DNA of 18,942 bases from a virus, in UHGV virus genome UHGV-0121731; one strand, 5' to 3'. The notes under the pieces are model-generated. The model did no database searches. It saw only the letters and a program-made list of their open reading frames with translations, and had not been told where the DNA came from. Of the stretch, positions 1 through 18,942 are shown in pieces (the first letter of the stretch is position 1; each line of letters begins with the position of its first letter). The translations under genes were made by a program, and so were the position numbers.

Positions 1-49
1 ATTAGTTAAATTACTCATATCGCTTCAATTGGCTCTAGTTAACTCTGGT

Positions 50-1438: not shown

Positions 1439-1531
1439 AATTTTGCTAATCTCCAATTATATTGTTACTTGGCAATTTGTGATTCGCTCAAAAAGGCTCT
1501 AGATGGCTCCAGTTGGTGAATCGCAAATCTT
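1439..1531. promoter_or_regulatory. Divergent early/repressor promoter-operator region (lysis-lysogeny switch) containing a tandem decamer GGCTCTAGAT-GGCTCCAGTT at 1495-1514
   Basis: Non-coding gap between the divergently transcribed C and cox-like genes. It holds two adjacent direct repeats of GGCTCYAGWT. A possible rightward promoter is TTTGTGA (about 1476-1482) with TAGATG (1500-1505), but exact promoter elements are not resolved. Confidence 0.45.
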
Positions 1532-1903
1532 ATGGAGGATAGCAAAGTGACGACAAATGTAGAAATTTCTTGTCCAACTAGCGATGAGGCAAGTTTCGAA
1601 AATGAAGCCAAACGTAAAAGCATTCAGATTTCAGAGCGCCCATCTGATTTGCTGTCGAAAGAAGGTTTTGCTCTTTACATCGGTAAGACACCACGCGCGG
1701 TGGCTGAAATGGCTAAAGCAGGAAAGCTGCCAGCCTTCTACATGACAGACCCATTAAAACCAAGAGGGAAAGCTGAATTATGGATTAATCGCCGTGAGTG
1801 GGACAAGTACGCAGCCCAGCTAGTTGATGAAGCTCCGACAGAATGGCATGACTGGAAAAATCGCATTAGTTACAGCAAATCAAGACATGGCCGTGCGGCT
1901 TAA
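1532..1903 (+). CDS. cox: Cox-like excisionase/early-promoter regulator; true start uncertain (ATG 1532, GTG 1547 or TTG 1649)
   Basis: First gene of the rightward early operon, opposite the repressor. The segment ALYIGKTPRAVAEMAKAGKLPAFYMTDP resembles the winged-helix DNA-binding core of P2 Cox/186 Apl-type proteins. The 123-aa ORF is longer than P2 Cox (91 aa), so an internal start is plausible. Confidence 0.55.
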   Translation: MEDSKVTTNVEISCPTSDEASFENEAKRKSIQISERPSDLLSKEGFALYIGKTPRAVAEMAKAGKLPAFYMTDPLKPRGKAELWINRREWDKYAAQLVDEAPTEWHDWKNRISYSKSRHGRAA

Positions 1904-1913
1904 GGTGGAAAGG

Positions 1914-2084
1914 ATGAACGAGCCTCGTTGTATTGCTCAGTTATTGCGTAACGAAAGCCCCAGGGCGATTGACTTCACCATCACCCACGGTAAGGGGCGT
2001 AAGGGAATCATTATCCGCACCAAAAAACAGAGTCCGGTAAAAAAGGCTCTGACCTTTCTGAAAAGCCGGAGGGTCTGGAAATGA
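1914..2084 (+). CDS. Small basic early protein (56 aa), positional equivalent of P2 orf78
   Basis: ATG at 1914 preceded by AAGGTGGAAAGG and placed 10 nt after the cox stop. Its stop overlaps the next gene's start (ATGA at 2081-2084). Product is K/R-rich. The ORF track shows a longer version from 1824 that overlaps cox. Confidence 0.4.
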   Translation: MNEPRCIAQLLRNESPRAIDFTITHGKGRKGIIIRTKKQSPVKKALTFLKSRRVWK

Positions 2085-2581
2085 CAGTGATGACGCTCAA
2101 TCTCGTTGAAAAACAGCCAGCAGCTATGCGCCGGATAATTGGCAAGCATCTTGCCGTCCCTCGCTGGCAGGATACATGTGATTATTATAATCAGATGATG
2201 GAGCGCGAACGGCTAACGGTTTGCTTTCATGCACAGTTAAAACAGCGTCACGCAACGATGCGTTTTGAAGAAATGAACGACGTCGAACGTGAACGACTGG
2301 TTTGTGCAATTGATGAATTGCGTGGCGCATTCTCAAAACGCCGTCAGGTTGGTGCAAGTGAGTATGCATATATTAGTTTTTTAACAGTCAGTCAGCGTCG
2401 CACTTTATTTATGCACGCACGACTGACAGAAAAAGAATTCAACCAGCCGTACTGGCGAATTAATGAAGAATCATGTTACTGGCGTGATGCTTTATTCCGT
2501 GCATTACGTGAATTATTCAGTCTGTTTGAGTATGCACCGACAATTCTGACGTCGGTAAAACCAGAGCAATATCTGCATTAA
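2081..2581 (+). CDS. Early protein, likely P2 gpB-like replication accessory protein (166 aa)
   Basis: Position between cox and A and a length of 166 aa matching P2 B. Translationally coupled to the upstream small ORF. Assignment is by synteny and size only. Confidence 0.5.
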   Translation: MTVMTLNLVEKQPAAMRRIIGKHLAVPRWQDTCDYYNQMMERERLTVCFHAQLKQRHATMRFEEMNDVERERLVCAIDELRGAFSKRRQVGASEYAYISFLTVSQRRTLFMHARLTEKEFNQPYWRINEESCYWRDALFRALRELFSLFEYAPTILTSVKPEQYLH

Positions 2582-2602
2582 ATAATTAACCAGAGTTTTT
2601 AA

Positions 2603-2630
2603 CGCACTTAATCGTGCGGGGCTTCTTTTT
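2603..2630 (+). terminator. Weak hairpin plus T-run after the B-like gene (possible partial terminator/attenuator)
   Basis: CGCAC-ttaatc-GTGCG stem-loop followed by GGGCTTCTTTTT. The stem is short (5 bp), so this is weak. Confidence 0.25.
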
Positions 2631-2644
2631 GCCTGGAGAAAGTC

Positions 2645-2869
2645 ATGCATACAGTTTCTGAAAATCAGTGCGGTAAATACGCATTACTGCTGCAACAGGC
2701 CAGAACCGAAGCACAGGCCGACGCTGCGACGCGCTTTTCTTCTCATCTTGACGCCATGATTCGCCATATCACAAAGGCGGAGTTATCCCGCGTGGAGATA
2801 GTCGAGCTGCTCAGTCAGGAGTCGGAAAAATTTCACAATATCGGATTGTCTCGCGGGGAGGTGCTTTGA
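2645..2869 (+). CDS. Hypothetical early protein (74 aa), P2 orf80 position
   Basis: ORF with GGAG ribosome-binding site at 2634-2637 and ATG at 2645. Its end overlaps the next gene. It lies in the conserved early-operon block between B and A. Confidence 0.5.
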
Positions 2870-3171
2870 TGTCCTGTTCTCATTCAGTTGTATTACTGAA
2901 TAACGCCTTAAAAATCGCCGTTATGGAAAATGGTGATTTATCTCTTATTCAACTTTGTCTTGATAAAGAAAAACGCGACATAACTGAATCTGTTATCGCG
3001 ATTTATCAGAATGAATTAAACCTCCTGTCTGATGTGGTCAATTTACTTGTTAAACGCGCTGTATTCCACAAGCAAATTTCCTCCGTGGATGAACTGACAA
3101 AATTAACGACAGAAATCGTCAGCTATTGCGCTGATGAATTTAAGAAACTGAACGACAAAAGGAACTGGTAA
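2866..3171 (+). CDS. Hypothetical early protein (101 aa), P2 orf81 position
   Basis: Overlapping start/stop with both neighbours (TAATG at 3169-3173), same strand and operon context. Confidence 0.5.
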
Positions 3172-3395
3172 TGCCGGACAACGTAGATTTCATTCAGGAA
3201 CAACAGGCTGAATTACTGGAGCGCCAGATTAACGCGGCAAGGGTAAAACATTGCGGTGTTTCTGCGCTGGTTTGCGAAGAGTGTGACGTGCCAATACCTG
3301 CTGCCCGTCGTGCGGCTTATCCGTCAGCCACGCGTTGTGTTTCCTGTCAGTCAGTCTTTGAAGCAAAAAACAAACATTACCGGAGAATGGCATGA
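3171..3395 (+). CDS. TraR/DksA-type C4 zinc-finger protein (74 aa), P2 orf82 position
   Basis: Two CxxC pairs (CEEC...CVSC) in a short protein with an N-terminal helical region, the hallmark of phage TraR/DksA-like zinc-finger proteins found at this position in P2-like early operons. Confidence 0.6.
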   Translation: MPDNVDFIQEQQAELLERQINAARVKHCGVSALVCEECDVPIPAARRAAYPSATRCVSCQSVFEAKNKHYRRMA

Positions 3396-3667
3396 GTATT
3401 CGTATCGAAATTGGCGAACGTTATGTCGTTACCAGTGACAGCTTTCAGTTTATTCTCCACGAGAAAAAGAGAGCGGAAAGCGGTAAAAACGCCGGTCAGG
3501 AGTGGCTGGCGGTGGTTGGTTATTACCCGAAATTAAGCCAGCTCGTTTCCGGCCTGATGCATCACGATATTCTGACCGGAAGCGCAAAGTCTTTTGCTGA
3601 TTTAAACGCGCAGGTTGAGCAACTCAGCAAGCGTTGTTCAGAGGCTTTTGGCTCATATGGCCGTTAA
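3392..3667 (+). CDS. Hypothetical early protein (91 aa), P2 orf83 position
   Basis: ATGA overlap with the upstream gene at 3392-3395. Its 3' end overlaps the start of A. Confidence 0.5.
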   Translation: MSIRIEIGERYVVTSDSFQFILHEKKRAESGKNAGQEWLAVVGYYPKLSQLVSGLMHHDILTGSAKSFADLNAQVEQLSKRCSEAFGSYGR

Positions 3668-5921
3668 AGCCTCCGGGCATTTTGTCCCTCCGTCAGCATT
3701 TGCCGCAGGCACCGGTGAGACGTTTACCGGTGCTTATGCATGGAACGCGCCACGCGAGGCCGTCGGGCGCGAAAGACCCCTTACACGTGACGAGATGCGT
3801 CAGGTGCAAGGTGTTTTATCCACGATTAACCGCCTGCCTTACTTTTTGCGCTCGCTGTTTACTTCACGCTATGACTACATCCGGCGCAATAAAAGCCCGG
3901 TACACGGGTTTTATTTCCTCACATCCACTTTTCAGCGTCGTTTATGGCCGCGCATTGAACGTGTGAATCAGCGCCATGAAATGAACACCGACGCGTCGTT
4001 GCTGTTTCTGGCAGAGCGTGACCATTATGCGCGTCTGCCGGGGATGAATGACAAGGAGCTGAAAAAGTTTGCCGCCCGTATCTCATCGCAGCTTTTCATG
4101 ATGTATGAGGAACTCAGCGATGCCTGGGTGGATGCGCATGGCGAAAAAGAATCACTGTTTACGGATGAGGCTCAGGCTCACCTGTATGGTCATGTTGCTG
4201 GCGCTGCACGAGCTTTCAATATTTCCCCGCTCTACTGGAAAAAATACCGTAAAGGACAGATAACCACGAGGCAGGCATATTCTGCCATTGCCCGCCTGTT
4301 TAACGATGAGTGGTGGACTCATCAGCTTAAAGGCCAGCGTATGCGCTGGCATGAAGCGTTACTGATAGCTGTCGGGGAGGTCAATAAAGACCGTTCTCCT
4401 TATGCCAGTAAACATGCCATTCGTGATGTGCGTGCACGCCGCCAGGCAAATCTGGAATTTCTTAAATCGTGTGACCTCGAAAACAGGGAAACCGGCGAGC
4501 GCATCGACCTTATCAGTAAGGTGATGGGCAGTATTTCTAATCCTGAAATTCGCCGGATGGAGCTGATGAACACCATCGCTGGTATTGAGCGTTACGCCGC
4601 CGCAGAGGGTGATGTGGGGATGTTTATCACGCTTACCGCGCCGTCAAAGTATCACCCGACACGTCAGGTCGGAAAAGGTGAAAGTAAAACCGTCCAGCTT
4701 AATCACGGCTGGAACGATGAGGCATTTAATCCAAAGGATGCGCAGCGTTATCTCTGCCGTATCTGGAGCCTGATGCGCACGGCATTCAAGGATAATGATT
4801 TACAGGCCTACGGTTTGCGTGTCGTCGAGCCACACCACGACGGAACGCCGCACTGGCATATGATGCTTTTTTGTAATCCACGCCAGCGTAACCAGATTAT
4901 TGAAATCATGCGTCGTTATGCGCTCAAAGAGGATGGCGACGAAAGAGGAGCCGCGCGAAACCGTTTTCAGGCAAAACACCTTAACCGGGGCGGTGCTGCG
5001 GGATATATCGCGAAATACATCTCAAAAAATATCGACGGCTATGCACTGGATGGTCAGCTCGATAACGATACCGGCAGACCGCTGAAAGACACTGCTGCGG
5101 CTGTTACCGCATGGGCGTCAACGTGGCGTATCCCGCAATTTAAAACGGTTGGCCTGCCGACAATGGGGGCTTACCGTGAACTACGCAAACTGCCTCGCGG
5201 CGTCAGCATTGCTGATGAGTTTGACGAACGCGTCGAGGCTGCACGCGCCGCCGCAGACAGTGGTGATTTTGCGTTGTATATCAGCGCGCAGGGTGGGGCA
5301 AATGTCCCGCGCGATTGTCAGACTGTCAGGGTTGCCCGTAGCCCGTCGGATGACGTTAACGAGTACGAGGAAGAAGTCGAGAGAGTGGTCGGCATTTACG
5401 CACCGCATCTCGGCGCGCGTCATATTCATATCACCAGAACCACGGACTGGCGCATTGTGCCGAAAGTGCCGGTCGTTGAGCCTTTGACTTTAAAAAGCGG
5501 CATCGCCGCGCCTCGGAGTCCTGTCAATAACTGTGGAAAGCTCACCGGTGGTGATACTTCGTTACCGGCTCCCACACCTTCTGAGCACGCCGCAGCAGTG
5601 CTTAATCTGGTTGATGACGGTGTTATCGAATGGGATGACCCGGATGTCGTGAGGGCGCTCAGAGGTGCATTGAAACACGGACTGAGAACACCAAATCGTC
5701 AGCAAAGAAACGGAAGCCCGTTAAAACCGCATGAAATAGCGCCATCAGCCAGACTGACCCGGTCGGAACGAATGCAAATCACCCGTATCCGCGTTGACCT
5801 TGCTCAGAACGGTATCAGGCCGCAGCGATGGGAACTTGAGGCGCTGGCGCGTGGAGCGACATTGGTATATGGCGAAAAAAAATTCACATATCAGCTTGTT
5901 GATAAGCAGTTTGGTTTTTAA
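3657..5921 (+). CDS. A: Rolling-circle replication initiation endonuclease, P2 gpA family (754 aa from the ATG at 3657)
   Basis: N-terminus MAVKASGHFVPPSAFAAGTGETFTGAYAWNAPREAVGRER matches my recollection of P2 A almost exactly. The length is close to P2 A (761 aa). The ORF track starts 14 codons earlier at 3615. Confidence 0.9.
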   Translation: MAVKASGHFVPPSAFAAGTGETFTGAYAWNAPREAVGRERPLTRDEMRQVQGVLSTINRLPYFLRSLFTSRYDYIRRNKSPVHGFYFLTSTFQRRLWPRIERVNQRHEMNTDASLLFLAERDHYARLPGMNDKELKKFAARISSQLFMMYEELSDAWVDAHGEKESLFTDEAQAHLYGHVAGAARAFNISPLYWKKYRKGQITTRQAYSAIARLFNDEWWTHQLKGQRMRWHEALLIAVGEVNKDRSPYASKHAIRDVRARRQANLEFLKSCDLENRETGERIDLISKVMGSISNPEIRRMELMNTIAGIERYAAAEGDVGMFITLTAPSKYHPTRQVGKGESKTVQLNHGWNDEAFNPKDAQRYLCRIWSLMRTAFKDNDLQAYGLRVVEPHHDGTPHWHMMLFCNPRQRNQIIEIMRRYALKEDGDERGAARNRFQAKHLNRGGAAGYIAKYISKNIDGYALDGQLDNDTGRPLKDTAAAVTAWASTWRIPQFKTVGLPTMGAYRELRKLPRGVSIADEFDERVEAARAAADSGDFALYISAQGGANVPRDCQTVRVARSPSDDVNEYEEEVERVVGIYAPHLGARHIHITRTTDWRIVPKVPVVEPLTLKSGIAAPRSPVNNCGKLTGGDTSLPAPTPSEHAAAVLNLVDDGVIEWDDPDVVRALRGALKHGLRTPNRQQRNGSPLKPHEIAPSARLTRSERMQITRIRVDLAQNGIRPQRWELEALARGATLVYGEKKFTYQLVDKQFGF

Positions 5922-6360
5922 TCAAATAGTGTATTAAATGTACTAAAATGTATCTTTTTATATAAAAAACAAAGTGCTGAATCAATTCTCATTTTTTGTA
6001 TTTTTTAGATCGTAAACCGATTAGTGTTACCAAGAGTATTCAGTTAATAGGGCTTTAATTTTTTGCTTCCCTGTTTTGGTGGTTATGTGGTACTGTTTTT
6101 TTATACAGTTTTTGAGGTTGCTGAGAAATAGAAAATGATAGAGTTATATGCGAGCCTTAGTTTAATTCGTTGTAATTAGGATTGGGTATATCATTCGTAC
6201 TGTCAGTGGTCATATACCACTAAGCAAAGCAATAGAATCCTACGAATTATTGTTTAAATAGTAACATTGGCAATTATAACGGCAGTATCTGTGTTTTGTC
6301 TGTCAGTGGTTACATCGAGAGTATGTGATTTGCATTACATAACTAGTTGATGTTCCTTAG

Positions 6361-6389
6361 TTGTAGATAGAAAGTATTCGATTTATTAT
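6361..6389 (+). promoter_or_regulatory. Candidate sigma70 promoter for the cargo operon (-35 TTGTAG 6361-6366, 17-bp spacer, -10 TATTAT 6384-6389)
   Basis: Hexamers with canonical spacing lie about 35 bp upstream of the first cargo gene (ribosome-binding site AAGGA at 6410-6414, ATG at 6423). The region is AT-rich, so chance matches are likely. Confidence 0.25.
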
Positions 6390-6422
6390 AAGAGTACAAA
6401 AATTTATGCTAAGGATACTAGA

Positions 6423-6614
6423 ATGGAGTGGATTACACATATAATCACTTTCTTTGTCGGACTGGGAGCGGGTTGGTCGATTCGTGTCGTGTTTTCATCT
6501 AGAAAGCAAATTGGTGATTCCAGCGTGAACTCAAACAATCATACAGTTACTCAAACTGGTAACAGTGTTACAAATGGAAGTATTGTTGGCGGTAATCAGG
6601 ATAGGTCACATTAA
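6423..6614 (+). CDS. Small membrane protein (63 aa): one predicted TM helix plus an S/N/T/G-rich tail
   Basis: Good ribosome-binding site and ATG. Hydrophobic segment WITHIITFFVGLGAGWSIRVVF followed by a polar tail ending in the repeat GNSVTNGSIVGGNQ. First gene of the low-GC operon. Confidence 0.5.
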   Translation: MEWITHIITFFVGLGAGWSIRVVFSSRKQIGDSSVNSNNHTVTQTGNSVTNGSIVGGNQDRSH

Positions 6615-6625
6615 GAGGTGTTGGT

Positions 6626-7189
6626 GTGTCTATCGAACAGTCAGGAAATACCGTAACAAATGGCAACATAATTTCTGGTGATCAGACTAATCATATATTC
6701 AATTATCCTGTTAAAGGAACTAACAGGGAGATACAGAAACTTTATGAGTGTTTGAAGAGAGGTGATATAGGGGAAGCGGTTCCGGGGTTTTGTGCTGAAC
6801 TAGAGCATTATATGTCCCTTCAGCCTGATATTGATGTTCGGGGGTTAGACGCTAAATTACTCGAGAGTAATAGAAAAGATTTGTTGTTTTTAGCTAAGCA
6901 GATGAAGGAAAAAGCGACAAAAGCTATAATGCGTCGCCAGACGTCAAAAACTGCACAAAGAATATTTGTAATAATTTTAGATCAAATTCATTTTGATTTT
7001 ATAACGAAAGTAACACCACTTATAGAAGCGGATAGCTCCAGAGTGATTGTTGATGAGAAAATCGCTTCAATAATTGATGAATTATATTCGTCTTTGGGAG
7101 AAAACTTGCTAGAGCTAACAGCAAAAGATCTCTTGGGATTACTATTTTTTCTGGGTGGCAATTGCCATATAAGGTGGGATAAATGCTAA
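6626..7189 (+). CDS. Hypothetical protein (187 aa): N-terminal GNTVTNGNIISGDQ repeat and a helical C-terminal domain
   Basis: GTG start preceded by AGAGGTG. Its N-terminus repeats the C-terminal peptide motif of the upstream small ORF. Stop overlaps the next start (ATG at 7183). Confidence 0.55.
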   Translation: MSIEQSGNTVTNGNIISGDQTNHIFNYPVKGTNREIQKLYECLKRGDIGEAVPGFCAELEHYMSLQPDIDVRGLDAKLLESNRKDLLFLAKQMKEKATKAIMRRQTSKTAQRIFVIILDQIHFDFITKVTPLIEADSSRVIVDEKIASIIDELYSSLGENLLELTAKDLLGLLFFLGGNCHIRWDKC

Positions 7190-7683
7190 TTTACCATCCA
7201 GCATATGATGCATATCATTGTTTATTCAGAATGATTGCTCTTATAGACCATGTAAATGAAATTGAGGTAGATAAGGCCAGGATTTTGGACTTCTATCTGC
7301 TATTTCCTGCTTTGGTATCTGAAATTAGAATGCCTCATAATTATTCTTCAATGAAGAAAGAAGCGAAGAAGTATTCTAATATATATCGGGATCCTATTAA
7401 TGTTACATCTACATTCAGAGATATGTATGAAATTCAAATGGCAGCAATAAGATGTCTTGCAGCTACTGGGTTGGTTGAGATGGATTGTCTTGAGAAAAAC
7501 ATTATAAAGAGAACAGATAAGTCTGTTCCAGATGGCTTATTACTTTCTATTAATAATTTTATTAATACGAATAAAACTATTAATACATTTATCATAGACA
7601 CACTATCTAAATTCCATTTGGTTGGAAAAGATGGTTTAAAAGATAGAACGAAGTTAATGGAGTTTAGATATGACTATTCTTAA
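7183..7683 (+). CDS. Hypothetical small helical protein (166 aa); possible middle-component-like partner of the ATPase
   Basis: Overlaps both neighbours (translational coupling). No catalytic motif is recognisable by eye. Confidence 0.55.
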   Translation: MLIYHPAYDAYHCLFRMIALIDHVNEIEVDKARILDFYLLFPALVSEIRMPHNYSSMKKEAKKYSNIYRDPINVTSTFRDMYEIQMAAIRCLAATGLVEMDCLEKNIIKRTDKSVPDGLLLSINNFINTNKTINTFIIDTLSKFHLVGKDGLKDRTKLMEFRYDYS

Positions 7684-9607
7684 TCCATCTTTTTTTGTTA
7701 GTAAATTAAAAGTTTTCCAAGCTGGGCATGAAGCCTTTAGCTGTGTTTTCCATAAAGGGGTAAATGTAATAAGGGGGCGAAATAGCTCTGGCAAAACTAC
7801 TGTTATGGATCTTTTAGCATTTTCACTTGGTGCTGAAAATATTAGCTTGAAACCAACAGCTCTTTTATGTTCATTTACCATGGTTGAAGTGCTTTTGAAT
7901 AATAATCTTGCCTGTTTTAAGCGGGAGATAAGTTCAGAATCCATGCGACCGTTGAGTATTTTTTGGGGCTCGATGGATAAAGCTCTTAACTCATCACCGA
8001 GTCAGTGGCAAACTTATCCTTTTAAGCGTTCAGAAAAATCACTGAGTTTTTCTCAGGTAATTTTAAATGCTTTAGATATGCCTCTAGCTCAAGGAGAGGG
8101 TGCTTCAATTTTAACAATGCATCAAATCCTACGTGTATTATATGCAGATCAGCCATCTCTTCATAGTCCTATATTTAGGAACGATAATTTTGATAGAGCT
8201 CTAACACGAGAGACTATTGGTGATTATTTATGTGGTATATTTGATGACAAACTTTATAGCTCTTTGATTAGGCTTAAACAGGTTGATTCTGAACTTTCGA
8301 CAAAAATTGTTGAGCTGAAAAGCATATTTAAAGTTCTTGGACGCTCTGGGCAATCGCAGCATGTAAGTTTTATTGACGATAAAATAAAAGAGCTAAGAGA
8401 GAAGAAAGAAAAGATCAATGGCGAGCTTATCTCTCTCAAAGAGAGTAATAACTCTTCTGTTAATGATAAAAATGCTGATAAAACTAAAACTAACAACCTT
8501 CGAAAAAAATTAAATAAAGCGAAGGAAGAAGAAGTAAAAAATATTGATAGTATCCATATGTTAGAAATGGAGATAGCTGACTCTGAAATGTTCATTAATG
8601 AGTTAGAATCCAGATTGCGCTCTCTTAATGAATCAAGTATTGCCAGAGACTATTTTAGCAACGTTAAATTTCAATTTTGTCCCAGTTGTTTAAGTGAGTT
8701 GAATATTTCCTCTGAAAATGAGTGCTCATTATGTAAAAATCACGCGCCAGAGGGTAGTGATGCTCCTCAATTATTAAGGATGAAAAATGAGATTTCTATC
8801 CAATTAAAAGAATCCAGAGATCTTCTTGAGCATAATTATGTAAAACTGAGAGAGCTTAAGAGCCAATCTCCTGCTTTAAAGCAAAAAGTGCGAGATTTAA
8901 TTCGTGAATATGAAGAAGTCTCTAAGGTTTGGGAAAATGCCTATGAAATAGAGTTTGAAACTCTTACTAAGGCTCTGGGACGTGTTGAAGAAGAAATTAA
9001 ACAGGCTTGTGAATTACAAAAACTTAGTGATGTAATATCTGATTTGCAAAAAGAACGTGATAGTCTGCAGTTAGAGAAGGAGAGATTGTCCTCTTTAATT
9101 GAATCTTTGGAGAGTAAAGAGGAATATAGGAAGAAGGATATTTCTAAAACTATAGAAAAAATTATGAAAAGACTTCTTAAAAAAGATCTTCCATTGCAGA
9201 CTGAATTTATTGATCCCAGAAAAGTTAATTTTAGCTTTGCCGATAATACTGTTTATGTAAATGGGGCTAAGTATTTTTCAGAAAGTTCAGCAGTTGTATT
9301 AAGACATCTCTTTCATTTAGCATTGTTAACTGCAAGCATTGAAAAAAAATACATGAGATTACCTCGTTTCCTAATGCTTGATGGAATTGACGATGGTGGA
9401 ATGGAGAAAGAGCGCAGTCACAATCTGCAGAAAATAATAGTACAAGAAACTCAATCGTATCAATATGATTTTCAAATAATTTATGCGACATCGGAGATTA
9501 ATCCAGAATATGAAAATACCGATTTGATTGTTGGTCGGTATTTTAATCCAGATGATAAATCATTAAAGATAAATTATACCGCTCTTGATAAAGATTTATT
9601 GAACTAA
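7670..9607 (+). CDS. SMC/Rad50-like ABC ATPase (645 aa) with split head, long K/E-rich coiled coil and central CxxC-x14-CxxC hook
   Basis: Walker A GRNSSGKTT at residues 36-44 (nt 7775-7801). Central Cys pairs CPSC...CSLC at nt 8678-8734. K/E-rich heptad-like region across roughly residues 200-520. C-terminal Walker B-like FLMLDGIDDGG (about nt 9371-9400) followed by ERSH. No Toprim or other nuclease domain is appended. Confidence 0.75.
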   Translation: MTILNPSFFVSKLKVFQAGHEAFSCVFHKGVNVIRGRNSSGKTTVMDLLAFSLGAENISLKPTALLCSFTMVEVLLNNNLACFKREISSESMRPLSIFWGSMDKALNSSPSQWQTYPFKRSEKSLSFSQVILNALDMPLAQGEGASILTMHQILRVLYADQPSLHSPIFRNDNFDRALTRETIGDYLCGIFDDKLYSSLIRLKQVDSELSTKIVELKSIFKVLGRSGQSQHVSFIDDKIKELREKKEKINGELISLKESNNSSVNDKNADKTKTNNLRKKLNKAKEEEVKNIDSIHMLEMEIADSEMFINELESRLRSLNESSIARDYFSNVKFQFCPSCLSELNISSENECSLCKNHAPEGSDAPQLLRMKNEISIQLKESRDLLEHNYVKLRELKSQSPALKQKVRDLIREYEEVSKVWENAYEIEFETLTKALGRVEEEIKQACELQKLSDVISDLQKERDSLQLEKERLSSLIESLESKEEYRKKDISKTIEKIMKRLLKKDLPLQTEFIDPRKVNFSFADNTVYVNGAKYFSESSAVVLRHLFHLALLTASIEKKYMRLPRFLMLDGIDDGGMEKERSHNLQKIIVQETQSYQYDFQIIYATSEINPEYENTDLIVGRYFNPDDKSLKINYTALDKDLLN

Positions 9608-9612
9608 CAACC

Positions 9613-9640
9613 AAAACCATGCATAACCATGCATGGTTTT
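9613..9640 (+). terminator. Intrinsic terminator after the cargo operon
   Basis: Perfect hairpin AAAACCATGCAT-aacc-ATGCATGGTTTT starting 6 nt after the ATPase stop. The stem ends in a T-run on the + strand and an A-run precedes it, so it could terminate in both directions. Confidence 0.6.
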
Positions 9641-9740
9641 GCATTTATATCAGCTTGTTTTTGAATCGGGGCAAGTCCAGAGGTGGTAAGCTGTTTGGAG
9701 AAAACTGCAACTGCATTAAAACCGCCCCACGAAGCGGGCG

Positions 9741-9759
9741 GGCGAGGCGGGGAAAGCAC
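9741..9759. other. P2-type cos site (19-nt cohesive-end sequence GGCGAGGCGGGGAAAGCAC)
   Basis: Exact match to the P2 cohesive-end sequence as I remember it, located between the hotspot and portal gene Q as in P2 prophage maps. The sequence is recalled, not looked up. Confidence 0.6.
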
Positions 9760-9901
9760 TGCGCGCTGGCGGTGGTGCTGATTTTATTTTTTCAGCGTCT
9801 GAGCGCGTCGTGATGGCGTTTAGATTGTTAGCCGGGGCGTTGGTGTGTCTGCGGGCTGTTTTGTGCGGTGGTGAGCGTGTGAGGGCGTGATGGCGGGTTG
9901 T

Positions 9902-9923
9902 AAAAAAGCCGCCCGCAGGCGGC
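9902..9923 (-). terminator. Intrinsic terminator of the leftward P-Q transcript
   Basis: GCCGCC-cgca-GGCGGC hairpin (9908-9923) lying 5 nt downstream of the Q stop on the minus strand and followed on that strand by a run of six T (AAAAAA on + at 9902-9907). Confidence 0.6.
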
Positions 9924-9928
9924 GATGT

Positions 9929-10963
9929 TCAGCCGTTGTCAGTGTCCAGTGAGTAGTTTTTAAAGCGGATGACCTCCTGACCGAGCCAGCCGTTTATCTC
10001 GCGGATCCTGTCCTGTAACGGGATAAGCTCATTGCGGACAAAGACCTTTGCCACTTTCTCAATATCACCCAGCGACCCGACGTTCTCCGGCTTGCCCCCC
10101 ATCAACTGAAAGGGGATGCGGTGCGCGTCCAGCAGGTCAGCGGCGCTGGCTTTTTTGATATTAAAAAAATCGTCCTTCGTTGCCACTTCACTGAGCGGGA
10201 TAATTTTAATGCCGTCGGCTTTCCCCTGTGGGGCATAGAGAAACAGATTTTTAAAGTTATTGCGGCCTTTCGACTTAACCATGTTTTCGCGAAGCATTTC
10301 GATATCGTTGCGATCCTGCACGGCATCAGTGACGTACATGATGTATCCGGCATGTGCGCCGTTTTCGTAATACTTGCGGCGGAACAGCGTGGCCGACTCA
10401 TTCAGCCAGGCAGAGTTAAGGGCGCTGAGATATTCCGGCAGGCCGTACAGCTCCTGATTAATATCCGGCTCCAGCAGGTGAAACACGGAGCCGGGCGTGA
10501 AAGGTGTCGGCTCGTTGAAGGACGGCACCCACCAGTAAACATCCTCCTCCACCCCACGGCGGGTATATTTTGCCGGTGAGGTTTCCAGTCTGATGACCTT
10601 ACCGGTAGTGCTGTAACGCTTTTCCAGAAACGCATTACCGAACACCAGAAAATCCAGCACAAAGCGGCTGAAATCCTGCTGAGAAAGCCACGGATGCGGG
10701 ATAAATGTCGAGGCCAGAATATTGCGTTTGACGTAAATTGGTGAGCTGTGATGCACGGCAGCACGCAGGCTTTTTGCCAGACCGGTAAAGCTGACCGGTG
10801 GCTCATACCATCTGCCGTTACTGATGCACTCGACGTAATCCAGAATGTCACGGCGGTCGAGTACCGGCACCGGCTCACCAAAGGTGAATGCTTCCATTTT
10901 CGGGGCGCTGGCGGTCATTTTTTTTGCCGCAGGTTGCGGTGTTTTCCCTTTTTTCTTGCTCAT
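9929..10963 (-). CDS. Q: Portal protein, P2 gpQ family (344 aa)
   Basis: Length identical to P2 Q. Product starts MSKKKGKTPQPAAKK with a GGAG ribosome-binding site. Its start overlaps the stop of the upstream terminase remnant (TGATG), as in the P2 P-Q operon. Confidence 0.85.
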   Translation of the reverse strand: MSKKKGKTPQPAAKKMTASAPKMEAFTFGEPVPVLDRRDILDYVECISNGRWYEPPVSFTGLAKSLRAAVHHSSPIYVKRNILASTFIPHPWLSQQDFSRFVLDFLVFGNAFLEKRYSTTGKVIRLETSPAKYTRRGVEEDVYWWVPSFNEPTPFTPGSVFHLLEPDINQELYGLPEYLSALNSAWLNESATLFRRKYYENGAHAGYIMYVTDAVQDRNDIEMLRENMVKSKGRNNFKNLFLYAPQGKADGIKIIPLSEVATKDDFFNIKKASAADLLDAHRIPFQLMGGKPENVGSLGDIEKVAKVFVRNELIPLQDRIREINGWLGQEVIRFKNYSLDTDNG

Positions 10964-11235
10964 CAGTAAAACTCCAGAATGGTGGATGTCAGCGAGGTGC
11001 TGATACCGGCGGTGAGTGGCTCATTTAACAGGGCGTGCATGGTCGCCCAGGCGAGGTCGGCGTGGCTGGCTTCCTCGCTGCGGCTGGCCTCATAGGTGGC
11101 GCTGCGTCCGCTGCTGGTCATGGTCTTGCGGATAGCCATAAACGAGCTGGTGATGTCGGTGGCGCTGACGTCATATTCCAGACAGCCACGACGGATAACG
11201 TCTTTTGCCTTGAGCACCATTGCGGTTTTCATTTC
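10963..11235 (-). pseudogene. P: Terminase large subunit (P2 gpP family), C-terminal remnant only (about 90 codons of an expected ~590)
   Basis: The minus-strand frame ending ...SLTSTILEFY is coupled to the Q start as in P2, but the reading frame runs into the S remnant and V/W on the opposite strand within about 300 bp, so the 5' ~1.5 kb of P is absent. Confidence 0.7.
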
Positions 11236-11664
11236 CGGTGTGTGACCGGACTGATTGAATCGCTGTCACCGTCAGGGCGTCGGCGACTGAGCGCCGAACT
11301 GGCGAAACGTCTGCGTCAGAGTCAGCAGCGTCGGGTGATGGCACAGAAAGCCCCGGACGGCACACCCTACGCGCCACGCCAGCAGCAGAGCGCCAGAAAA
11401 AAGACTGGTCGTGTTAAGCGAAAAATGTTTGCGAAACTTATCACCAGTCGTTTTTTGCATATCCGCGCCAGCCCGGAACAGGCATCAATGGAATTTTACG
11501 GCGGGAAGTCGCCGAAAATCGCCAGTGTGCATCAGTTCGGTCTGTCGGAAGAAACCCGGAAAGACGGTAAGAAAATTGATTATCCGGCGCGTCCTCTGCT
11601 CGGCTTTACCGGTGAGGATGTGCAGATGATTGAAGAGATTATCCTGGCTCACCTCGACCGTTAG
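11236..11664 (+). pseudogene. S: Tail completion protein (P2 gpS family) lacking its start and first residues
   Basis: Frame reading ...LSPSGRRRLSAELAKRLRQSQQRRVMAQKAPDGTPYAPRQ... to a stop at 11664 resembles gpS-type proteins. No start codon or ribosome-binding site is present, and it abuts the terminase remnant on the other strand. Confidence 0.65.
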
Positions 11665-11696
11665 TTGTGCCATCCCCGACACCTCATCGTCACATT

Positions 11697-11718
11697 GCCG
11701 CCGGTATGACCCGGCGGC
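11697..11718 (+). terminator. GC-rich hairpin between the S remnant and V (GCCGCCGG-tatgac-CCGGCGGC); possible operon boundary element
   Basis: Perfect 8-bp GC stem with no clear U-tract, so terminator function is doubtful. Confidence 0.2.
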
Positions 11719-11730
11719 ATCCTTCCCGTT

Positions 11731-12366
11731 ATGAACACTCTCGCAAATATTCAGGAACTCGCGCGCGCACTGCGCAACATGATCCGCACCGGCGTTATCG
11801 TCGAAACCGACCTTAACGCCGGTCGCTGCCGTGTGCAGACCGGCGGCATGTGCACTGACTGGCTTCAGTGGCTGACCCATCGCGCCGGACGTTCGCGCAC
11901 ATGGTGGGCACCTTCCGTGGGGGAACAGGTGCTGATTCTGGCCGTGAGCGGTGAACTCGACACGGCGTTCGTTCTGCCGGGGATTTATTCCGGCGATAAC
12001 CCCGCGCCGTCTGCGTCGTCTGATGCCCTGCATATCCGTTTCCCTGACGGGGCGGTGATTGAATATGAACCCGAAACCAGTGCACTTACGGTAAGCGGAA
12101 TTAAAACGGCCAGCGTGACGGCTTCTGATTCTGTTACCGCCACGGTGCCGGTGGTCACGGTGAAAGCGTCAACCCGTGTCACCCTGGACACACCGGAAGT
12201 GGTCTGCACTAACAAACTGACTACCGGCACGCTGGAAGTGCAGAAGGGCGGGACGATGCGCGGCAACATTGAACACACCGGCGGTGAACTCTCATCAAAC
12301 GGTAAGGTACTGCATACCCATAAACACCCCGGCGACAGTGGCGGCACAACAGGGGGACCTCTATGA
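11731..12366 (+). CDS. V: Baseplate central spike protein, P2 gpV family (211 aa)
   Basis: Length identical to P2 V. N-terminus MNTLANIQELARALRNMIRTG and C-terminus HTHKHPGDSGGTTG match my recollection of gpV. Confidence 0.9.
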   Translation: MNTLANIQELARALRNMIRTGVIVETDLNAGRCRVQTGGMCTDWLQWLTHRAGRSRTWWAPSVGEQVLILAVSGELDTAFVLPGIYSGDNPAPSASSDALHIRFPDGAVIEYEPETSALTVSGIKTASVTASDSVTATVPVVTVKASTRVTLDTPEVVCTNKLTTGTLEVQKGGTMRGNIEHTGGELSSNGKVLHTHKHPGDSGGTTGGPL

Positions 12367-12710
12367 CTGCGCGTTATCTCGGAATGAATCGCAGTGATGG
12401 CCTGACGGTCACTGACCTTGAGCATATCAGCCAGAGTATCGGCGATATCCTGCGCACACCGGTCGGCTCACGGGTGATGCGTCGTGATTACGGCTCGTTG
12501 CTGGCGTCAATGATTGACCAGCCGCAGATCCCGGCGCTTGAGTTGCAGATTAAGGTCGCCTGTTACATGGCGGTGCTGAAATGGGAACCCCGCGTCACCC
12601 TGTCATCCGTCACCACGGCGCGCAGTTTTGACGGGCGAATAACGGTCACGTTAACCGGTCAGCACAACGACACCGGCCAGCCACTTTCGTTAACCATCCC
12701 TGTGAGTTGA
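12363..12710 (+). CDS. W: Baseplate wedge protein, P2 gpW family (115 aa)
   Basis: Same length as P2 W, with an ATGA-coupled start to V. Confidence 0.85.
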   Translation: MTARYLGMNRSDGLTVTDLEHISQSIGDILRTPVGSRVMRRDYGSLLASMIDQPQIPALELQIKVACYMAVLKWEPRVTLSSVTTARSFDGRITVTLTGQHNDTGQPLSLTIPVS

Positions 12711-12714
12711 AACC

Positions 12715-13623
12715 ATGCCGATTATCGACCTGAACCAGCTACCCGCACCGGATGTGGTCGAGGAGCTGGACTTTGAAACCATTCTTGCCGAACGCAAGGC
12801 GACACTGATTTCCCTTTACCCGGAAGACCAGCAGGAGGCGGTCGCCCGTACCCTGATGCTGGAATCTGAGCCTCTCGTCAAACTGCTGGAGGAAAATGCT
12901 TATCGTGAGCTTATCTGGCGTCAGCGTGTGAATGAGGCCGCACGGGCGGTAATGCTGGCCTGTGCCGCCGGTAATGACCTTGATGTGATTGGTGCCAATT
13001 ACAACACCACGCGCCTGATTATCACCCCGGCAGATGATTCGACTATCCCGCCGACACCGGCAGTGATGGAATCTGACACCGATTATCGTCTGCGTATTCA
13101 GCAGGCGTTTGAAGGTTTAAGCGTCGCCGGGTCAGTGGGAGCCTATCAGTATCATGGTCGCAGTGCCGACGGGCGTGTCGCGGATATCTCTGTCACCAGT
13201 CCGTCTCCGGCCTGTGTCACTATCTCTGTGCTGTCTCGCGAAAATAACGGTATCGCATCCGAAGACCTGCTGGCGGTGGTGCGCAACGCCCTTAATGGTG
13301 AGGACGTCAGGCCGGTGGCCGACCGCGTGACCGTGCAGTCTGCCGCCATCGTTGAATACCAGATAAACGCCACGCTTTACCTTTACCCTGGTCCTGAAAG
13401 CGAACCCATCCGCGCTGCTGCCGTGAAAAAACTGGAAGCGTACATCACGGCACAGCACCGGCTGGGGCGCGACATCCGTCTGTCTGCCATTTATGCCGCT
13501 TTGCATGTGGAAGGCGTGCAGCGTGTCGAGCTGGCCGCACCACTGGCCGACATTGTGCTCAACAGTACGCAGGCGTCTTTCTGCACCGAATACAGCGTCG
13601 TGACCGGAGGCTCGGATGAGTGA
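12715..13623 (+). CDS. J: Baseplate wedge protein, P2 gpJ family (302 aa)
   Basis: Same length as P2 J and correct position in the conserved V-W-J-I order. Confidence 0.85.
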   Translation: MPIIDLNQLPAPDVVEELDFETILAERKATLISLYPEDQQEAVARTLMLESEPLVKLLEENAYRELIWRQRVNEAARAVMLACAAGNDLDVIGANYNTTRLIITPADDSTIPPTPAVMESDTDYRLRIQQAFEGLSVAGSVGAYQYHGRSADGRVADISVTSPSPACVTISVLSRENNGIASEDLLAVVRNALNGEDVRPVADRVTVQSAAIVEYQINATLYLYPGPESEPIRAAAVKKLEAYITAQHRLGRDIRLSAIYAALHVEGVQRVELAAPLADIVLNSTQASFCTEYSVVTGGSDE

Positions 13624-14227
13624 TTCGCGCCTGCTGCCGACCGGCTCATCACCGCTTGAAGTCGCCGCCGCAAGAGCCTGTGCGGAAATTGAAAAAACGC
13701 CGGTCAGTATTCGTGAGCTGTGGAACCCGGATACCTGTCCGGCAAATCTGCTGCCGTGGCTGGCGTGGTCATTTTCGGTTGACCGCTGGGATGATAAGTG
13801 GCCGGAAGCGACAAAACGCGCTGTTATCCGCGATGCGTATTTCATTCACTGCCATAAGGGCACTATTGGTGCGATTCGCCGTGTGGTGGAGCCGCTCGGC
13901 TATCTGATTGAGGTGAGGGAGTGGTGGCAGCTCAACGAGGAGCCGGGGACGTTCCGCATCGTTGTTGGCGTGCTTGAGCAGGGTATTACCGAGGAAATGT
14001 ATCAGGAGCTGGAGCGTCTCGTTGCTGATGCAAAACCTGCAAGCCGCCATCTGACGGGACTGGCTATCAGTTTAAGTACAACCGGCAACATTTTTGTCGG
14101 TGCGGGATGCTATCACGGCGACGCCCTGACGGTTTATCCCTACACCCCGGAGGCCATTATTGTCGGAGGGGATTATTTCCCGGCCTCGGCCATTCATTTA
14201 ATTGATAACCTGAGAGTAAACGCATGA
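13616..14227 (+). CDS. I: Baseplate/tail protein, P2 gpI family (203 aa)
   Basis: Position in the conserved V-W-J-I-H order and overlapping start/stop with both neighbours. Confidence 0.75.
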   Translation: MSDSRLLPTGSSPLEVAAARACAEIEKTPVSIRELWNPDTCPANLLPWLAWSFSVDRWDDKWPEATKRAVIRDAYFIHCHKGTIGAIRRVVEPLGYLIEVREWWQLNEEPGTFRIVVGVLEQGITEEMYQELERLVADAKPASRHLTGLAISLSTTGNIFVGAGCYHGDALTVYPYTPEAIIVGGDYFPASAIHLIDNLRVNA

Positions 14228-15408
14228 CAGTGAAATACTACGCCATTCTGACTAATCAGGGCGCAGCACGGCTGGCTAACGCGACGATGCTCGGCAGTAA
14301 GCTGAATCTGACGCAAATGGCCGTTGGTGATGCGAATGGTGTCTTGCCGACACCAGACCCGGCACAGATAAAACTGATTAACCAGAAACGCATCGCGCCG
14401 CTGAATCTTCTGAGTGTTGACCCGAACAACCAGAGTCAGATTATTGCGGAGCAAATCATCCCTGAGAACGAGGGCGGATTCTGGATCCGTGAGATTGGGC
14501 TTTATGATGATGAAGGCGTACTCATTGCGGTGGCGAACTGCCCGGAAACGTACAAACCGCAGTTGCAGGAAGGCAGTGGTCGTACCCAGACTATCCGCAT
14601 GATTCTGGTTGTCACGAATACCGAAGCTATCACGCTGAAAATCGACCCGTCGGTGGTACTGGCGACCCGTAAATATGTGGATGATGAAGTCCTGGAATTA
14701 AGGCTGTATGTGGATGACCAGATGAGCAAACACATTGCCGCACAGGACCCTCATACCCAGTATGCACAGAAACATAATCCGACATTTACCGGAGAACCAA
14801 AAGCACCGACGCCTGCCGCAGGAAATAACACCACGCGGATTGCGACCACTGCGTTTGTACAGGCCGCTATTACCGCTCTGATTAACGGTGCGCCTGACAC
14901 GCTGGACACACTGAAAGAAATTGCCGCGGCCATTAACAATGACCCGAAATTCAGCACCACCATTAACAATGCGCTGGCAGGTAAACAACCGCTGGACAAT
15001 ACGCTGACTCATTTGAGTGGAAAGGATGTTGCCGGTCTTCTCGCATACCTTGGTTTGGGAGAAGCGGCGAAAAGGGATGTGGGCACAGGAGATAATCAGA
15101 TACCGGATATGGGAGCATTCGCTTCTGGTTCGGGATGGTTCAGGCTACCAGGTGGATATATTGTTCAGTTTGGCACTTTTGCAGGAAACACGACCCGCTT
15201 TATCAGTGGACACTTCCCTATACCATTCCCTAATCAGCCGATGGTTTCAGTCAGTGTTATGTCTGATGCCGTTCAGTCAGACCCGTCGATTCCTGCCCCG
15301 CAGGTTTTGTCTGTAAATTTTGAACATATCAGTAATTCAGCGTGGCGTGTGGCAACCAGTGATATCTCACAGCAATACAGATTCAGTTATATTTCGATAG
15401 GACGGTAG
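14224..15408 (+). CDS. H: Tail fibre protein (394 aa): constant N-terminal part (to about nt 15050) fused to the currently expressed variable C-terminal segment
   Basis: The N-terminus MTVKYYAILTNQGAARLANATMLGSKLNLTQMAVGDANG is the conserved tail-fibre N-domain of P2 H-type proteins. The invertase crossover site lies inside the ORF at 15038-15063. Confidence 0.85.
   Translation: MTVKYYAILTNQGAARLANATMLGSKLNLTQMAVGDANGVLPTPDPAQIKLINQKRIAPLNLLSVDPNNQSQIIAEQIIPENEGGFWIREIGLYDDEGVLIAVANCPETYKPQLQEGSGRTQTIRMILVVTNTEAITLKIDPSVVLATRKYVDDEVLELRLYVDDQMSKHIAAQDPHTQYAQKHNPTFTGEPKAPTPAAGNNTTRIATTAFVQAAITALINGAPDTLDTLKEIAAAINNDPKFSTTINNALAGKQPLDNTLTHLSGKDVAGLLAYLGLGEAAKRDVGTGDNQIPDMGAFASGSGWFRLPGGYIVQFGTFAGNTTRFISGHFPIPFPNQPMVSVSVMSDAVQSDPSIPAPQVLSVNFEHISNSAWRVATSDISQQYRFSYISIGR
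15038..15063. other. Left crossover site of the invertible segment (26 bp, TTCTCGCATACCTTGGTTTGGGAGAA)
   Basis: Imperfect dyad with the Hin/Gin-family site shape. Its right 14 bp (TTGGTTTGGGAGAA) are identical to the reverse complement of the site at 16914-16939. It encodes the LGLGE join in the fibre protein. Confidence 0.65.
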
Positions 15409-16425: not shown

Positions 16426-16926
16426 TATGCAGCCCTCACGATGTAGTTAAATGCAATGTTGCGCGGGCGGGTTTCAGTGCCAATATTCGCTGCATTGTCA
16501 GAAGCAACCCCACGAGTGCTGACAGCTCTTACTGCTGAAGGTAGGCTTTGAGGCTCCCGGTCAGTATAGGCAATCCCCCCATCCCCTCCAGTTGCTAGCG
16601 GAGCATAACTCCCGGCCTGACCAATAGTTGACGATGTTGTATTTGAACCTGTCCAGATCTGCTGGTTATGTGAGTGGTCTCTGAGTGAATGGCCTTGAGA
16701 TGAAAGCAGCGCACGCCCGTTGTCGATACCACGACTATCATCCCATCCACGAATAAACTCACCGCGTAAATCAGGTAATTTATTTGTTGGATAAGCCTTT
16801 GCCAGTTCCGGGTATTCTTCAGCAGAAAATGCCGCACCGTTGCATTTCAGCCAGCCTGTTGGCGGTGTGGCTGAAGGCCATGGAACAGGCACCCCAACAG
16901 GTAATGCTGAGCCTTCTCCCAAACCA
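16425..16926 (-). CDS. Alternative, currently silent tail-fibre C-terminal segment (tail-collar type); expressed only after inversion fuses it to the constant part of H
   Basis: The minus-strand frame crosses the right crossover site and continues ...GLGEGSALPVGVPVPWPSATPPTGWLKCNGAAFSAEEYPELAKAYP..LPDLRGEFIRGWDD, a classic tail-collar fibre motif. It has no promoter or start of its own; the ORF-track Met at 16967 lies outside the segment. Confidence 0.75.
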
Positions 16927-16939
16927 ACGTTTATGAAAA
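16914..16939. other. Right crossover site of the invertible segment (TTCTCCCAAACCAACGTTTATGAAAA)
   Basis: Reverse complement TTTTCATAAACGTTGGTTTGGGAGAA shares its right half exactly with the left site. It lies about 50 bp upstream of the invertase gene. Confidence 0.65.
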
Positions 16940-16988: not shown

Positions 16989-17588
16989 ATGCTCATGTTT
17001 ATTGGCTATGTACGCGTATCAACAAATGACCAGAACACGGAATTGCAGCGTAACGCGCTGGAATGCGCGGGATGTGAGCGGATTTTTGAGGACAAAATCA
17101 GCGGCACGAAGTCCGACAGGCCGGGACTGAAAAAACTGCTCAGGACATTATCGGAGGGGGATACACTGGTAGTCTGGAAGCTGGACCGGCTGGGGCGTAG
17201 TATGCGGCATCTGGTCATTCTGGTTGAGGAACTGCGCGAACGTGGCATTAATTTTCGCAGCCTGACGGATGCTATTGATACCAGCACGCCGATGGGGCGT
17301 TTTTTCTTTCATGTGATGGGTGCCCTGGCTGAAATGGAACGAGAACTCATTGTCGAGCGGACTCGGGCCGGGCTGGAAGCGGCCAGAGCCAAAGGTCGTA
17401 TTGGTGGCAGACGTCCTAAACTCACCACGAGTGAGTGGGAGCAGGCCGGGCGTTTGCTGGCTGCAGGGGAGTCACGTCAACGCGTGGCACTGATTTTTGA
17501 TATTGGTCTGTCCACGCTCTATAAAAAATTTCCCTCATCAGCGACAAAGAATAAATTGTGTCATCCCTTAGCCAACCGGGACAAATAG
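16989..17588 (+). CDS. Serine DNA invertase, Gin/Hin/Pin/Cin family (199 aa; alternative ATG at 16995)
   Basis: MLMFIGYVRVSTNDQNTELQRNALECAGCERIFEDKISGTKSDRPGLKKLL...GRIGGRRPKLT is near-identical in pattern to Gin/Pin, with catalytic Ser in the VRVSTNDQ motif and a C-terminal helix-turn-helix. Confidence 0.9.
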   Translation: MLMFIGYVRVSTNDQNTELQRNALECAGCERIFEDKISGTKSDRPGLKKLLRTLSEGDTLVVWKLDRLGRSMRHLVILVEELRERGINFRSLTDAIDTSTPMGRFFFHVMGALAEMERELIVERTRAGLEAARAKGRIGGRRPKLTTSEWEQAGRLLAAGESRQRVALIFDIGLSTLYKKFPSSATKNKLCHPLANRDK

Positions 17589-17647
17589 CCTGACATCTCC
17601 GGCACAACTGAAAATATCACTCACCCATTAACCACGGAGTTAAACGG

Positions 17648-18028
17648 ATGAGTGACTATCATCACGGCGTGCAGGTGCTGGAGATTAACGACGGCACCCG
17701 CGTCATTTCCACCGTATCCACTGCCATTGTCGGCATGGTCTGCACGGCCAGCGATGCGGATGCGGAAACCTTCCCCCTCAATAAACCGGTGCTGATTACC
17801 AATGTGCAGAGTGCAATTGCAAAGGCTGGTAAAAAAGGCACGCTGGCGGCGTCGTTGCAGGCCATCGCTGACCAGTCAAAACCGGTCACCGTTGTCGTGC
17901 GTGTGGAAGACGGCACCGGCGAAGACGAGGAAACGAAACTTGCGCAGACCGTTTCCAATATCATCGGCACCACCGACGAAAACGGCCAGTACACCGGACT
18001 GAAAGCCCTGCTGGCGGCGGAGTCGGTA
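17648..18028 (+). pseudogene. FI: Tail sheath protein (P2 gpFI family), N-terminal ~127 codons only
   Basis: [31 protein letters not shown]... matches the gpFI N-terminus as I remember it, but the frame stops after 146 codons; a full sheath is about 396 aa. Resemblance is lost after ...LLAAESV at about 18028. Confidence 0.7.
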
Positions 18029-18029
18029 A

Positions 18030-18179
18030 GACACCGAGTCGAAAATCTCCGTGGTCTGCACCTATTTCCGGTTGACGATGGACGGTAAGGAGCTGGTCGA
18101 AATCGACACCATCAACATGATTGAGAAGGTGAACGGCGTCGACCGGCTGGAGCAACACCGCCGCAATATCGGCCTGTGA
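18030..18179 (+). pseudogene. FII: Tail tube protein (P2 gpFII family), C-terminal ~49 codons only
   Basis: A different frame reads [49 protein letters not shown] to a stop at 18177-18179, about 56 bp upstream of E, which is where the tube gene ends in P2. There is no start codon. Identity rests on position and on recollection of the tube C-terminus. Confidence 0.5.
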
Positions 18180-18235
18180 TTTTCATACGGTCAGCCAGGC
18201 TGACCGGTTAACCCTGATTCAGAAGTGAGAAAACC

Positions 18236-18511
18236 ATGAACAAAGAAAATGTCATTACCCTGGAAAATCCGGTCAAACGTGGTGAGCAGGTTATCGAACA
18301 GGTCACGCTGATGAAACCCAGTGCCGGGACGCTGCGCGGTGTCAGTCTGGCTGCGGTTGCAAACTCCGAAGTCGATGCACTGATTAAGGTACTGCCGCGC
18401 ATGACGGCACCGATGCTGACCGAGCAGGAGGTCGCCGCGCTGGAACTGCCTGACCTTGTGGCGCTGGCCGGTAAGGTGGTCGGTTTTTTGTCGCCGAACT
18501 CGGTGCAGTGA
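18236..18511 (+). CDS. E: Tail assembly chaperone, P2 gpE family (91 aa)
   Basis: Same size as P2 E, with the slippery heptamer near its 3' end and the tape-measure start overlapping downstream. Confidence 0.85.
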   Translation: MNKENVITLENPVKRGEQVIEQVTLMKPSAGTLRGVSLAAVANSEVDALIKVLPRMTAPMLTEQEVAALELPDLVALAGKVVGFLSPNSVQ

Positions 18512-18663
18512 CGTTTCCGAAAAATCTGTCGGTCGATGACCTGATGGCGGATGTGGCAGTGATATTTCACTGGCCGCCATCAGAACTGTATCCCATGAGC
18601 CTGACCGAACTCATCACATGGCGCGAAAAGGCGCTCCGGCGAAGCGGAAACACGAATGAGTAA
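18236..18663 (+). CDS. E+E' frameshift fusion product (tail chaperone extension)
   Basis: Joining the E frame to the -1 frame at 18484-18490 gives a continuous product ending at TAA 18661-18663, which overlaps the tape-measure ATG at 18656 as in P2. Confidence 0.6.
18484..18490 (+). promoter_or_regulatory. Programmed -1 ribosomal frameshift site T_TTT_TTG producing E+E'
   Basis: A canonical X_XXY_YYZ heptamer in the E frame. The -1 frame is open from here to 18663 and reads VAELGAVTFPKNLSVDDLMADVAVIFHWPPSELYPMSLTELITWREKALRRSGNTNE. Confidence 0.7.
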
Positions 18664-18892
18664 CAATGTAAAATTACAGGTATTGCTCAGGGCTGTTGAC
18701 CAGGCATCCCGCCCATTTAAATCCATCCGTACAGCGAGTAAGTCGCTGTCGGGGGATAAGCGCGTCATAGACGAGCAGGACTGGACAATCACTAAGGTGA
18801 CACATTTTCTGAATAATAGCGGCTTCACGACGTCCCTGGAGCTTGAGGTCAGGCTTTCTGATGTGGAGTACGAAACAGAAGATGATGAGTGA
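18656..18892 (+). pseudogene. In-frame fusion remnant: tape-measure (gpT) N-terminal ~34 codons joined to the gpD C-terminal ~44 codons
   Basis: MSNNVKLQVLLRAVDQASRPFKSIRTASKSLSGD has the gpT start character, but the ORF is only 78 aa; a tape measure is over 800 aa. The tail ...WTITKVTHFLNNSGFTTSLELEVRLSDVEYETEDDE is followed by AT-rich non-coding DNA as expected after the last tail gene D. The D assignment is from memory and position. Confidence 0.55.
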
Positions 18893-18942
18893 TGTATTTA
18901 TTTTATCTGTTTGTTTTATAAGGATAAATTAACTAAAATGGC

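Follow-up and report, generated by a model that had tools for sequence, protein, structure and literature searches.

The stretch of DNA analysed here, called the window below, is the whole of UHGV-0121731 (18,942 nt), a P2-like (Peduovirus) prophage remnant lodged in E. coli between pflA and pflB. Eight collinear blocks with 94-98% identity to P2 (blastn against AF063097) run through it, among them cos, Q, V-W-J-I, pF-FI, E-E' and cox-B-A (Table 1). A tyrosine integrase gene stands at one end of the element and ogr at the other, the latter reached in carrier contigs that continue past the end of the window and lead on into pflB-focA-ycaO-serC-aroA. The chromosomal flanks in these contigs are 99.9% identical to E. 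coli chromosomes. On the comparison with P2 by blastn, the element carries three internal deletions, here named J1 (11243), J2 (18028/29) and J3 (18757/58); a first-pass annotation of the window had rightly placed J2 second in this order. As to the site itself, the prophage has inserted between pflA and pflB, at the 3' end of the former gene. This attachment site differs from the classical P2 sites, and the integrase gene shares only about 66-70% DNA identity with P2 int.

Table 1. Features of the window, with the matching P2 coordinates where an alignment gives them
Feature	Window position	Strand	P2 position	Remarks
Tyrosine integrase gene	50-1045	-		One end of the element
cox to A	1900-5906		26277-30283	blastn
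ABC-three-component (Lamassu-like) cassette	6626-9607			Intact, three genes; P2 old/tin hotspot
cos, Q, 3' end of P	9741-11243		1-1501	blastn
Junction J1	10963-11664			Joint at 11243; P 3' end (minus, 10963-11243) to S 3' part (plus, 11243-11664)
3' part of S	11243-11666		8946-9369	blastn
V, W, J, I	11731-14052		10308-12629	blastn
Invertible tail-fibre segment	15038-16939			1.9 kb
Crossover sites	15038-15064 and 16913-16939			27-nt inverted repeats
Serine invertase gene	16989-17588			Pin/Cin/Gin-like
Late promoter pF region	17551-17624	+	17555-17583 (Ogr site), 17626-17628 (transcription start)	Positional alignment
pF and start of FI	17568-18029		17572-18033	blastn, 95.9% identity, E = 0
Truncated sheath pseudogene FI'	17648-18088	+		127 gpFI codons, then 19 out-of-frame codons and TAA; 146 aa
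Junction J2	18028-18029		18033 joined to 19222	1,190 bp lost; base-level alignment
End of FII, E, E', start of T	18028-18758		19222-19952	blastn, 97.9% identity, E = 0
Tube gene remnant 'FII	18030-18179	+		gpFII codons 124-172 and stop
Tail-assembly chaperone genes	18236-18663	+		Intact; E 18236-18511, E+E' through 18663; Pfam PF10109
T'-'D in-frame fusion	18656-18892	+		T residues 1-34 and D residues 344-387; 78 aa
End of D	18757-18942		23819-24004	blastn

The sheath gene FI and the tube gene FII are cut and joined to each other at J2. The two P2 alignments that meet there have two nucleotides in common, the AA at 18028-18029, in agreement with the earlier placement of the junction at about 18028-18030. 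The loss amounts to 1,190 bp whether it is reckoned against P2 or against the closer relative Z142-6, so that the earlier estimate of about 1.5 kb was about 300 bp too large. Sheath codon 127/128 is joined to tube codon 123/124 out of frame, because 1,190 leaves a remainder of 2 on division by three and FI and FII occupy the same frame in P2.

Upstream of the joint, the first 127 residues of the 146-aa ORF align with residues 1-127 of gpFI, and the last 19 are unrelated to gpFI, being tube sequence read in a shifted frame. The description of this ORF as about 127 gpFI codons followed by 20 unrelated ones is therefore upheld by protein alignment in its first part and corrected by one codon in its second. 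In Pfam, the stub retains only PF22671 (sheath domain III N-terminal region, residues 26-86); PF04984 (Phage_sheath_1) and PF17482 (Phage_sheath_1C) are missing, whereas P2 gpFI has all three families. The loss comprises 269 of 396 sheath residues, both conserved core domains among them, and the core domains of the contractile sheath protein (gpFI / gp18 family) are thus gone. Judged by its sequence, the ORF is a truncated sheath pseudogene and functionally not a member of that family. A naturally short sheath, the reading that the first-pass annotation had itself set against a deletion, does not fit the related phages: in P2 as in Z142-6, the sheath measures 396 aa and the tube 172 aa.

Downstream of the joint, the 18030-18179 product is identical to gpFII residues 124-172 at 49 of 49 positions, and it matches the Pfam Phage_tube profile (PF04985) over positions 118-165 of 165 with E = 2.7e-18. 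The proposal that this frame is a tube C-terminus, put forward from the letters of the sequence, is borne out by both comparisons. Residues 1-122 of the tube protein and most of codon 123 have been lost. No ATG is found in the remnant, and its only internal GTG, at 18051, has no Shine-Dalgarno motif before it; the full-length PF04985 domain of a tail tube protein FII, with a start of its own, is absent. The surviving fragment has no usable start codon and is best regarded as non-coding. Its stop at 18179 lies 56 nt before the start of E at 18236, and the spacing in P2 is the same (19373 to 19430), as had been predicted. For annotation, it follows that the proper label for ORF 17648-18088 is sheath pseudogene, and for 18030-18179 tube-gene fragment.

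The surroundings of this scar are better preserved. The core promoter and start site of pF appear conserved with respect to P2. Near-continuous identity to P2 begins at about position 17570, within the annotated Ogr-binding site of pF, and upstream of that point the match is confined to TTGTG at 17556-17560. The upstream half of the predicted activator site (17551-17579) consequently differs from P2, and this half overlaps the end of the invertase gene. On the other side of the joint, the slippery sequence GGTTTTTTG is found at 18483-18491, and the P2 frameshift site at 19685 maps to window position 18491. The antisense ORFs that cross J2 (17961-18158 and 17876-18061, minus strand) match no family, an Rfam search of the window returned no family, and no sigma-70-like promoter was found in 17400-18942.

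The other two deletions are larger. At J1, about 7.4 kb has disappeared, with the rest of P, O, N, M, L, X, Y, K, lysABC, R and the start of S. At J3, 3,868 bp has been deleted across a TA microhomology: gpU is wholly lost, and the tape measure T is cut to 34 residues and fused with the last 44 of D. Between them, the three deletions eliminate or cut short functions of the capsid, the terminase ATPase, lysis, the sheath, the tube, the tape measure, U and D, so that essential P2 genes are gone. The earlier claim that no contractile tail or tailocin can be made from this element is strongly supported, since none of the genes for sheath, tube, tape measure, U, D, X, R and S has escaped deletion or truncation. 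There is strong reason, from gene content, to expect that the element alone could build neither virion nor tail nor tailocin and would need a helper.

J1 has a distribution of its own. It recurs, identical base for base, in another P2-like remnant of E. coli Z1323PEC0011 and Z1323PEC0013, located next to fieF/pfkA, with different cargo (a DEAD/DEAH helicase) and a sequence about 3% diverged around the joint. The presence of this allele at two loci with different cargo suggests that J1 may be an old event that preceded J2 and J3, or may have spread by prophage recombination or helper-assisted transfer. The J1 pattern was not found in the viral, metagenome and species-representative collections searched.

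J2 is almost certainly the scar of a spontaneous deletion within the FI-FII pair of a defective P2-like prophage. The junction, its size and frame, the domain losses, the intact ancestral type and the occurrence in independent samples are all direct observations. According to this explanation, 1,190 bp would have been lost from the sheath-tube pair of an integrated P2-like prophage, through microhomology-poor illegitimate end-joining or replication slippage. From then on, the sheath gene would encode at most a 146-aa stub that lacks the core domains needed to build the contractile lattice, the final 49 codons of the tube gene would persist as an untranslated relic, and the remnant, now presumably grounded, would be inherited vertically.

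The retention of such a remnant likely has its reason in the Lamassu-like cassette. Its proteins are a CTD9 effector-domain protein (187 aa), the middle component MC5 (166 aa) and an SMC-like ABC ATPase (645 aa) that matches PADLOC LmuB with E = 7e-47. We also considered whether the decayed late genes might still serve a purpose. In its widest form, this idea has the stub, E/E+E' and T'-'D acting as tail-poisoning decoys trans-activated by the Ogr of an arriving P2-like phage, or else the remnant being mobilisable by a helper; we hold it to be improbable. The decoy version, if true, would give the element a second, decoy-type means of exclusion beside its Lamassu-like system. The mobility version can point to the conservation of cos, int, cox, B, A and ogr and to the exact J1 joint found in a different remnant elsewhere. 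Slightly less probable still is the narrower form, in which the 146-aa stub, perhaps with T'-'D, would be a retained functional product, for example a dominant-negative decoy that upsets tail assembly in superinfecting P2-like phages and is expressed from pF once such a phage brings in Ogr. Conservation does extend to the core promoter of pF, to the start codon and to the ribosome-binding region, E and E+E' are intact and T'-'D is in frame; a second, independent remnant, that of GPEC1240, has a sheath N-terminal piece as well. However, an N-terminal piece of the first gene is expected after any two-gene deletion, and the architecture accordingly carries no signal. Selection cannot be measured on carriers that are all about 100% identical, the 19-residue end of the stub is frame-shifted tube read-through, and sheath-tube joints are rare: the two pieces are brought close together in 1 of the 1,674 genomes with a match to the region, within a search of 5,426 complete E. 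coli genomes.

As for the manner of the deletion, ordinary illegitimate recombination, by end-joining or slippage, is the most likely route. Microhomology amounts to 2 bp at J2 (AA), 2 bp at J3 (TA) and 1 bp at J1 (T). A random-joint model gives P(k>=2) = 0.16; the observed 2, 2 and 1 bp are of the length expected by chance and carry no repeat signal. The search for short direct repeats at the J2 breakpoint, recommended by the first-pass annotation, yielded none beyond the AA. Two other routes were considered and rejected: the GAGTCG hexamer present on both sides of J2, of which both copies are retained, and an IS-mediated deletion, as neither IS nor foreign DNA is found at any junction and the joints are flush with P2 sequence.

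A site-specific event would be the alternative, in which the element's own serine invertase cut directly oriented quasi-crossover sites. The enzyme is active in the lineage, where its segment has been seen flipped in other samples, and the crossover sites have a central AA/TT dinucleotide, AA also being the microhomology of J2. We scored the six parental breakpoints against the element's own 12-2-12 crossover consensus, taking the best of five offsets. The true sites reach 19-20, whereas five breakpoints score 6.75-7.5 and the sixth, on the right of J1, 8.75; against the background of the P2 genome (mean 6.0, 99th percentile 10.5), these values rank between the 65th and the 92nd percentile. 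Moreover, the J3 and J1 joints, TA and T, are not AA, and wild-type enhancer-dependent invertases strongly disfavour deletion. Involvement of the invertase is thus very improbable, and we retain illegitimate recombination.

The repeats that flank the invertible segment resemble the crossover sites of Gin, Cin and Pin, and in other samples of the same remnant the segment occurs in the opposite orientation with 99.9-100% identity (partly so in one of them). This indicates that the invertase still works in a prophage unable to make a tail.

In indexed public data, the exact 146-aa product occurs in 31 blocks. The ten contigs fetched stem from two draft E. coli assemblies at NCBI, from human-gut metagenomes in ENA and from Logan assemblies, and all are 99.8-100% identical to the window across J2, the longest covering all three deletions. 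GCA_012702095.1 and GCA_016665465.1 are among the carrier isolates. Overall, J2 is identical in more than ten independent assemblies, and independent E. coli assemblies and metagenomes show this remnant at one and the same locus. Every contig retrieved through the T'-'D fusion protein of J3 also has the J2 sheath stub; a search for intermediates with J3 and without J2 found none, nor did any contig show only one or two of the deletions as far as J2 and J3 are concerned. Neither the J2 nor the J3 breakpoint turned up in the collections searched, which comprised 5,426 complete E. coli genomes, 185,579 genomes of species representatives, IMG/VR and JGI metagenomes. J2 in particular is present in 0 of the 5,426 complete E. 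coli genomes, has no match among GenBank phages and no exact match in GTDB species representatives, IMG/VR or JGI metagenomes. Both breakpoints are specific to this lineage, and their host lineage, missing from the complete genomes, is known from draft and metagenome contigs only. The absence of J2 from finished E. coli genomes is the sole weak point that could favour an assembly artefact, with J2 arising from a collapsed or chimeric contig instead of a true deletion, and the chance of this is close to nil, as NCBI drafts, ENA metagenomes and Logan unitig assemblies, built by separate pipelines, hold the same J2 with 99.8-100% identical flanks and no repeat at the breakpoint could mislead an assembler.

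The scar of a spontaneous deletion stands as the preferred explanation, with no observation against it, and its practical meaning is simple. The element is a dead prophage and should be scored neither as an inducible phage nor as a tailocin locus. It provides one more documented case in which P2-like prophages drop structural and lysis genes and keep defence cargo; beyond annotation, its significance is little.

Set beside P2, the element has in common the gene order, the promoter position, the start of FI, the end of FII, the 56-nt FII-E spacer and the E/E' frameshift site, and its retained pieces are 96-98% identical in nucleotides when the late operon FI-FII-E-E'-T-U-D is compared. It lacks P2 18034-19221 (about 1,190 bp), 19953-23818 (3,868 bp) and about 1502-8945 (about 7.4 kb), and it differs from P2 in its integrase and attachment site, its tail-fibre/invertase module and its old/tin hotspot cargo. 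The closest relative found is the intact 32-kb P2-like prophage of E. coli Z142-6 (NZ_CP159689) at the pflA/pflB site. Both share the site, the integrase and the ABC-3C/Lamassu-like cargo, with 98.6% identity over window positions 1-11250. Z142-6 has complete head, lysis and tail genes, including the full-length sheath and tube, which the element does not; conversely, it has a tail-fibre region of the P2 H/G type and lacks the invertible segment and the invertase that the element possesses.

Other defective P2-like prophages of E. coli, such as those of GPEC1240 and of Z1323PEC0011 with its J1 joint, are likewise derived from P2 and shaped by internal deletions. The prophage of GPEC1240 (NZ_CM142783), which adjoins trhP, bears an independent sheath-tube deletion with other breakpoints (P2 18225 joined to 19050), which indicates that such scars recur in P2-like remnants; the rest of its tail operon looks intact. 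We take the cryptic P2 remnant of K-12 adjoining ogrK to belong to the same group.

R-type tailocins, contractile bacteriocins such as the R-pyocins, derive from a P2-like tail module that lost its head genes, and the element resembles them in keeping the baseplate genes V, W, J and I as well as fibre genes. Tailocins, however, retain intact sheath, tube, tape-measure and lysis genes, all of which are truncated or gone here: sheath, tube, T and D are truncated, and nothing is left of U, X, R and the lysis genes. The loss of sheath, tube, tape-measure and lysis genes means that this is not a tailocin locus. J2 is a product of ordinary prophage decay in a known kind of element and represents no new feature type. 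Defective P2-like prophages that combine pseudogenised core genes with intact defence cargo have already been described in a recent survey (PMC13586616). The retention of such cargo fits the account of P2 hotspots occupied by defence systems (PMC9122126).
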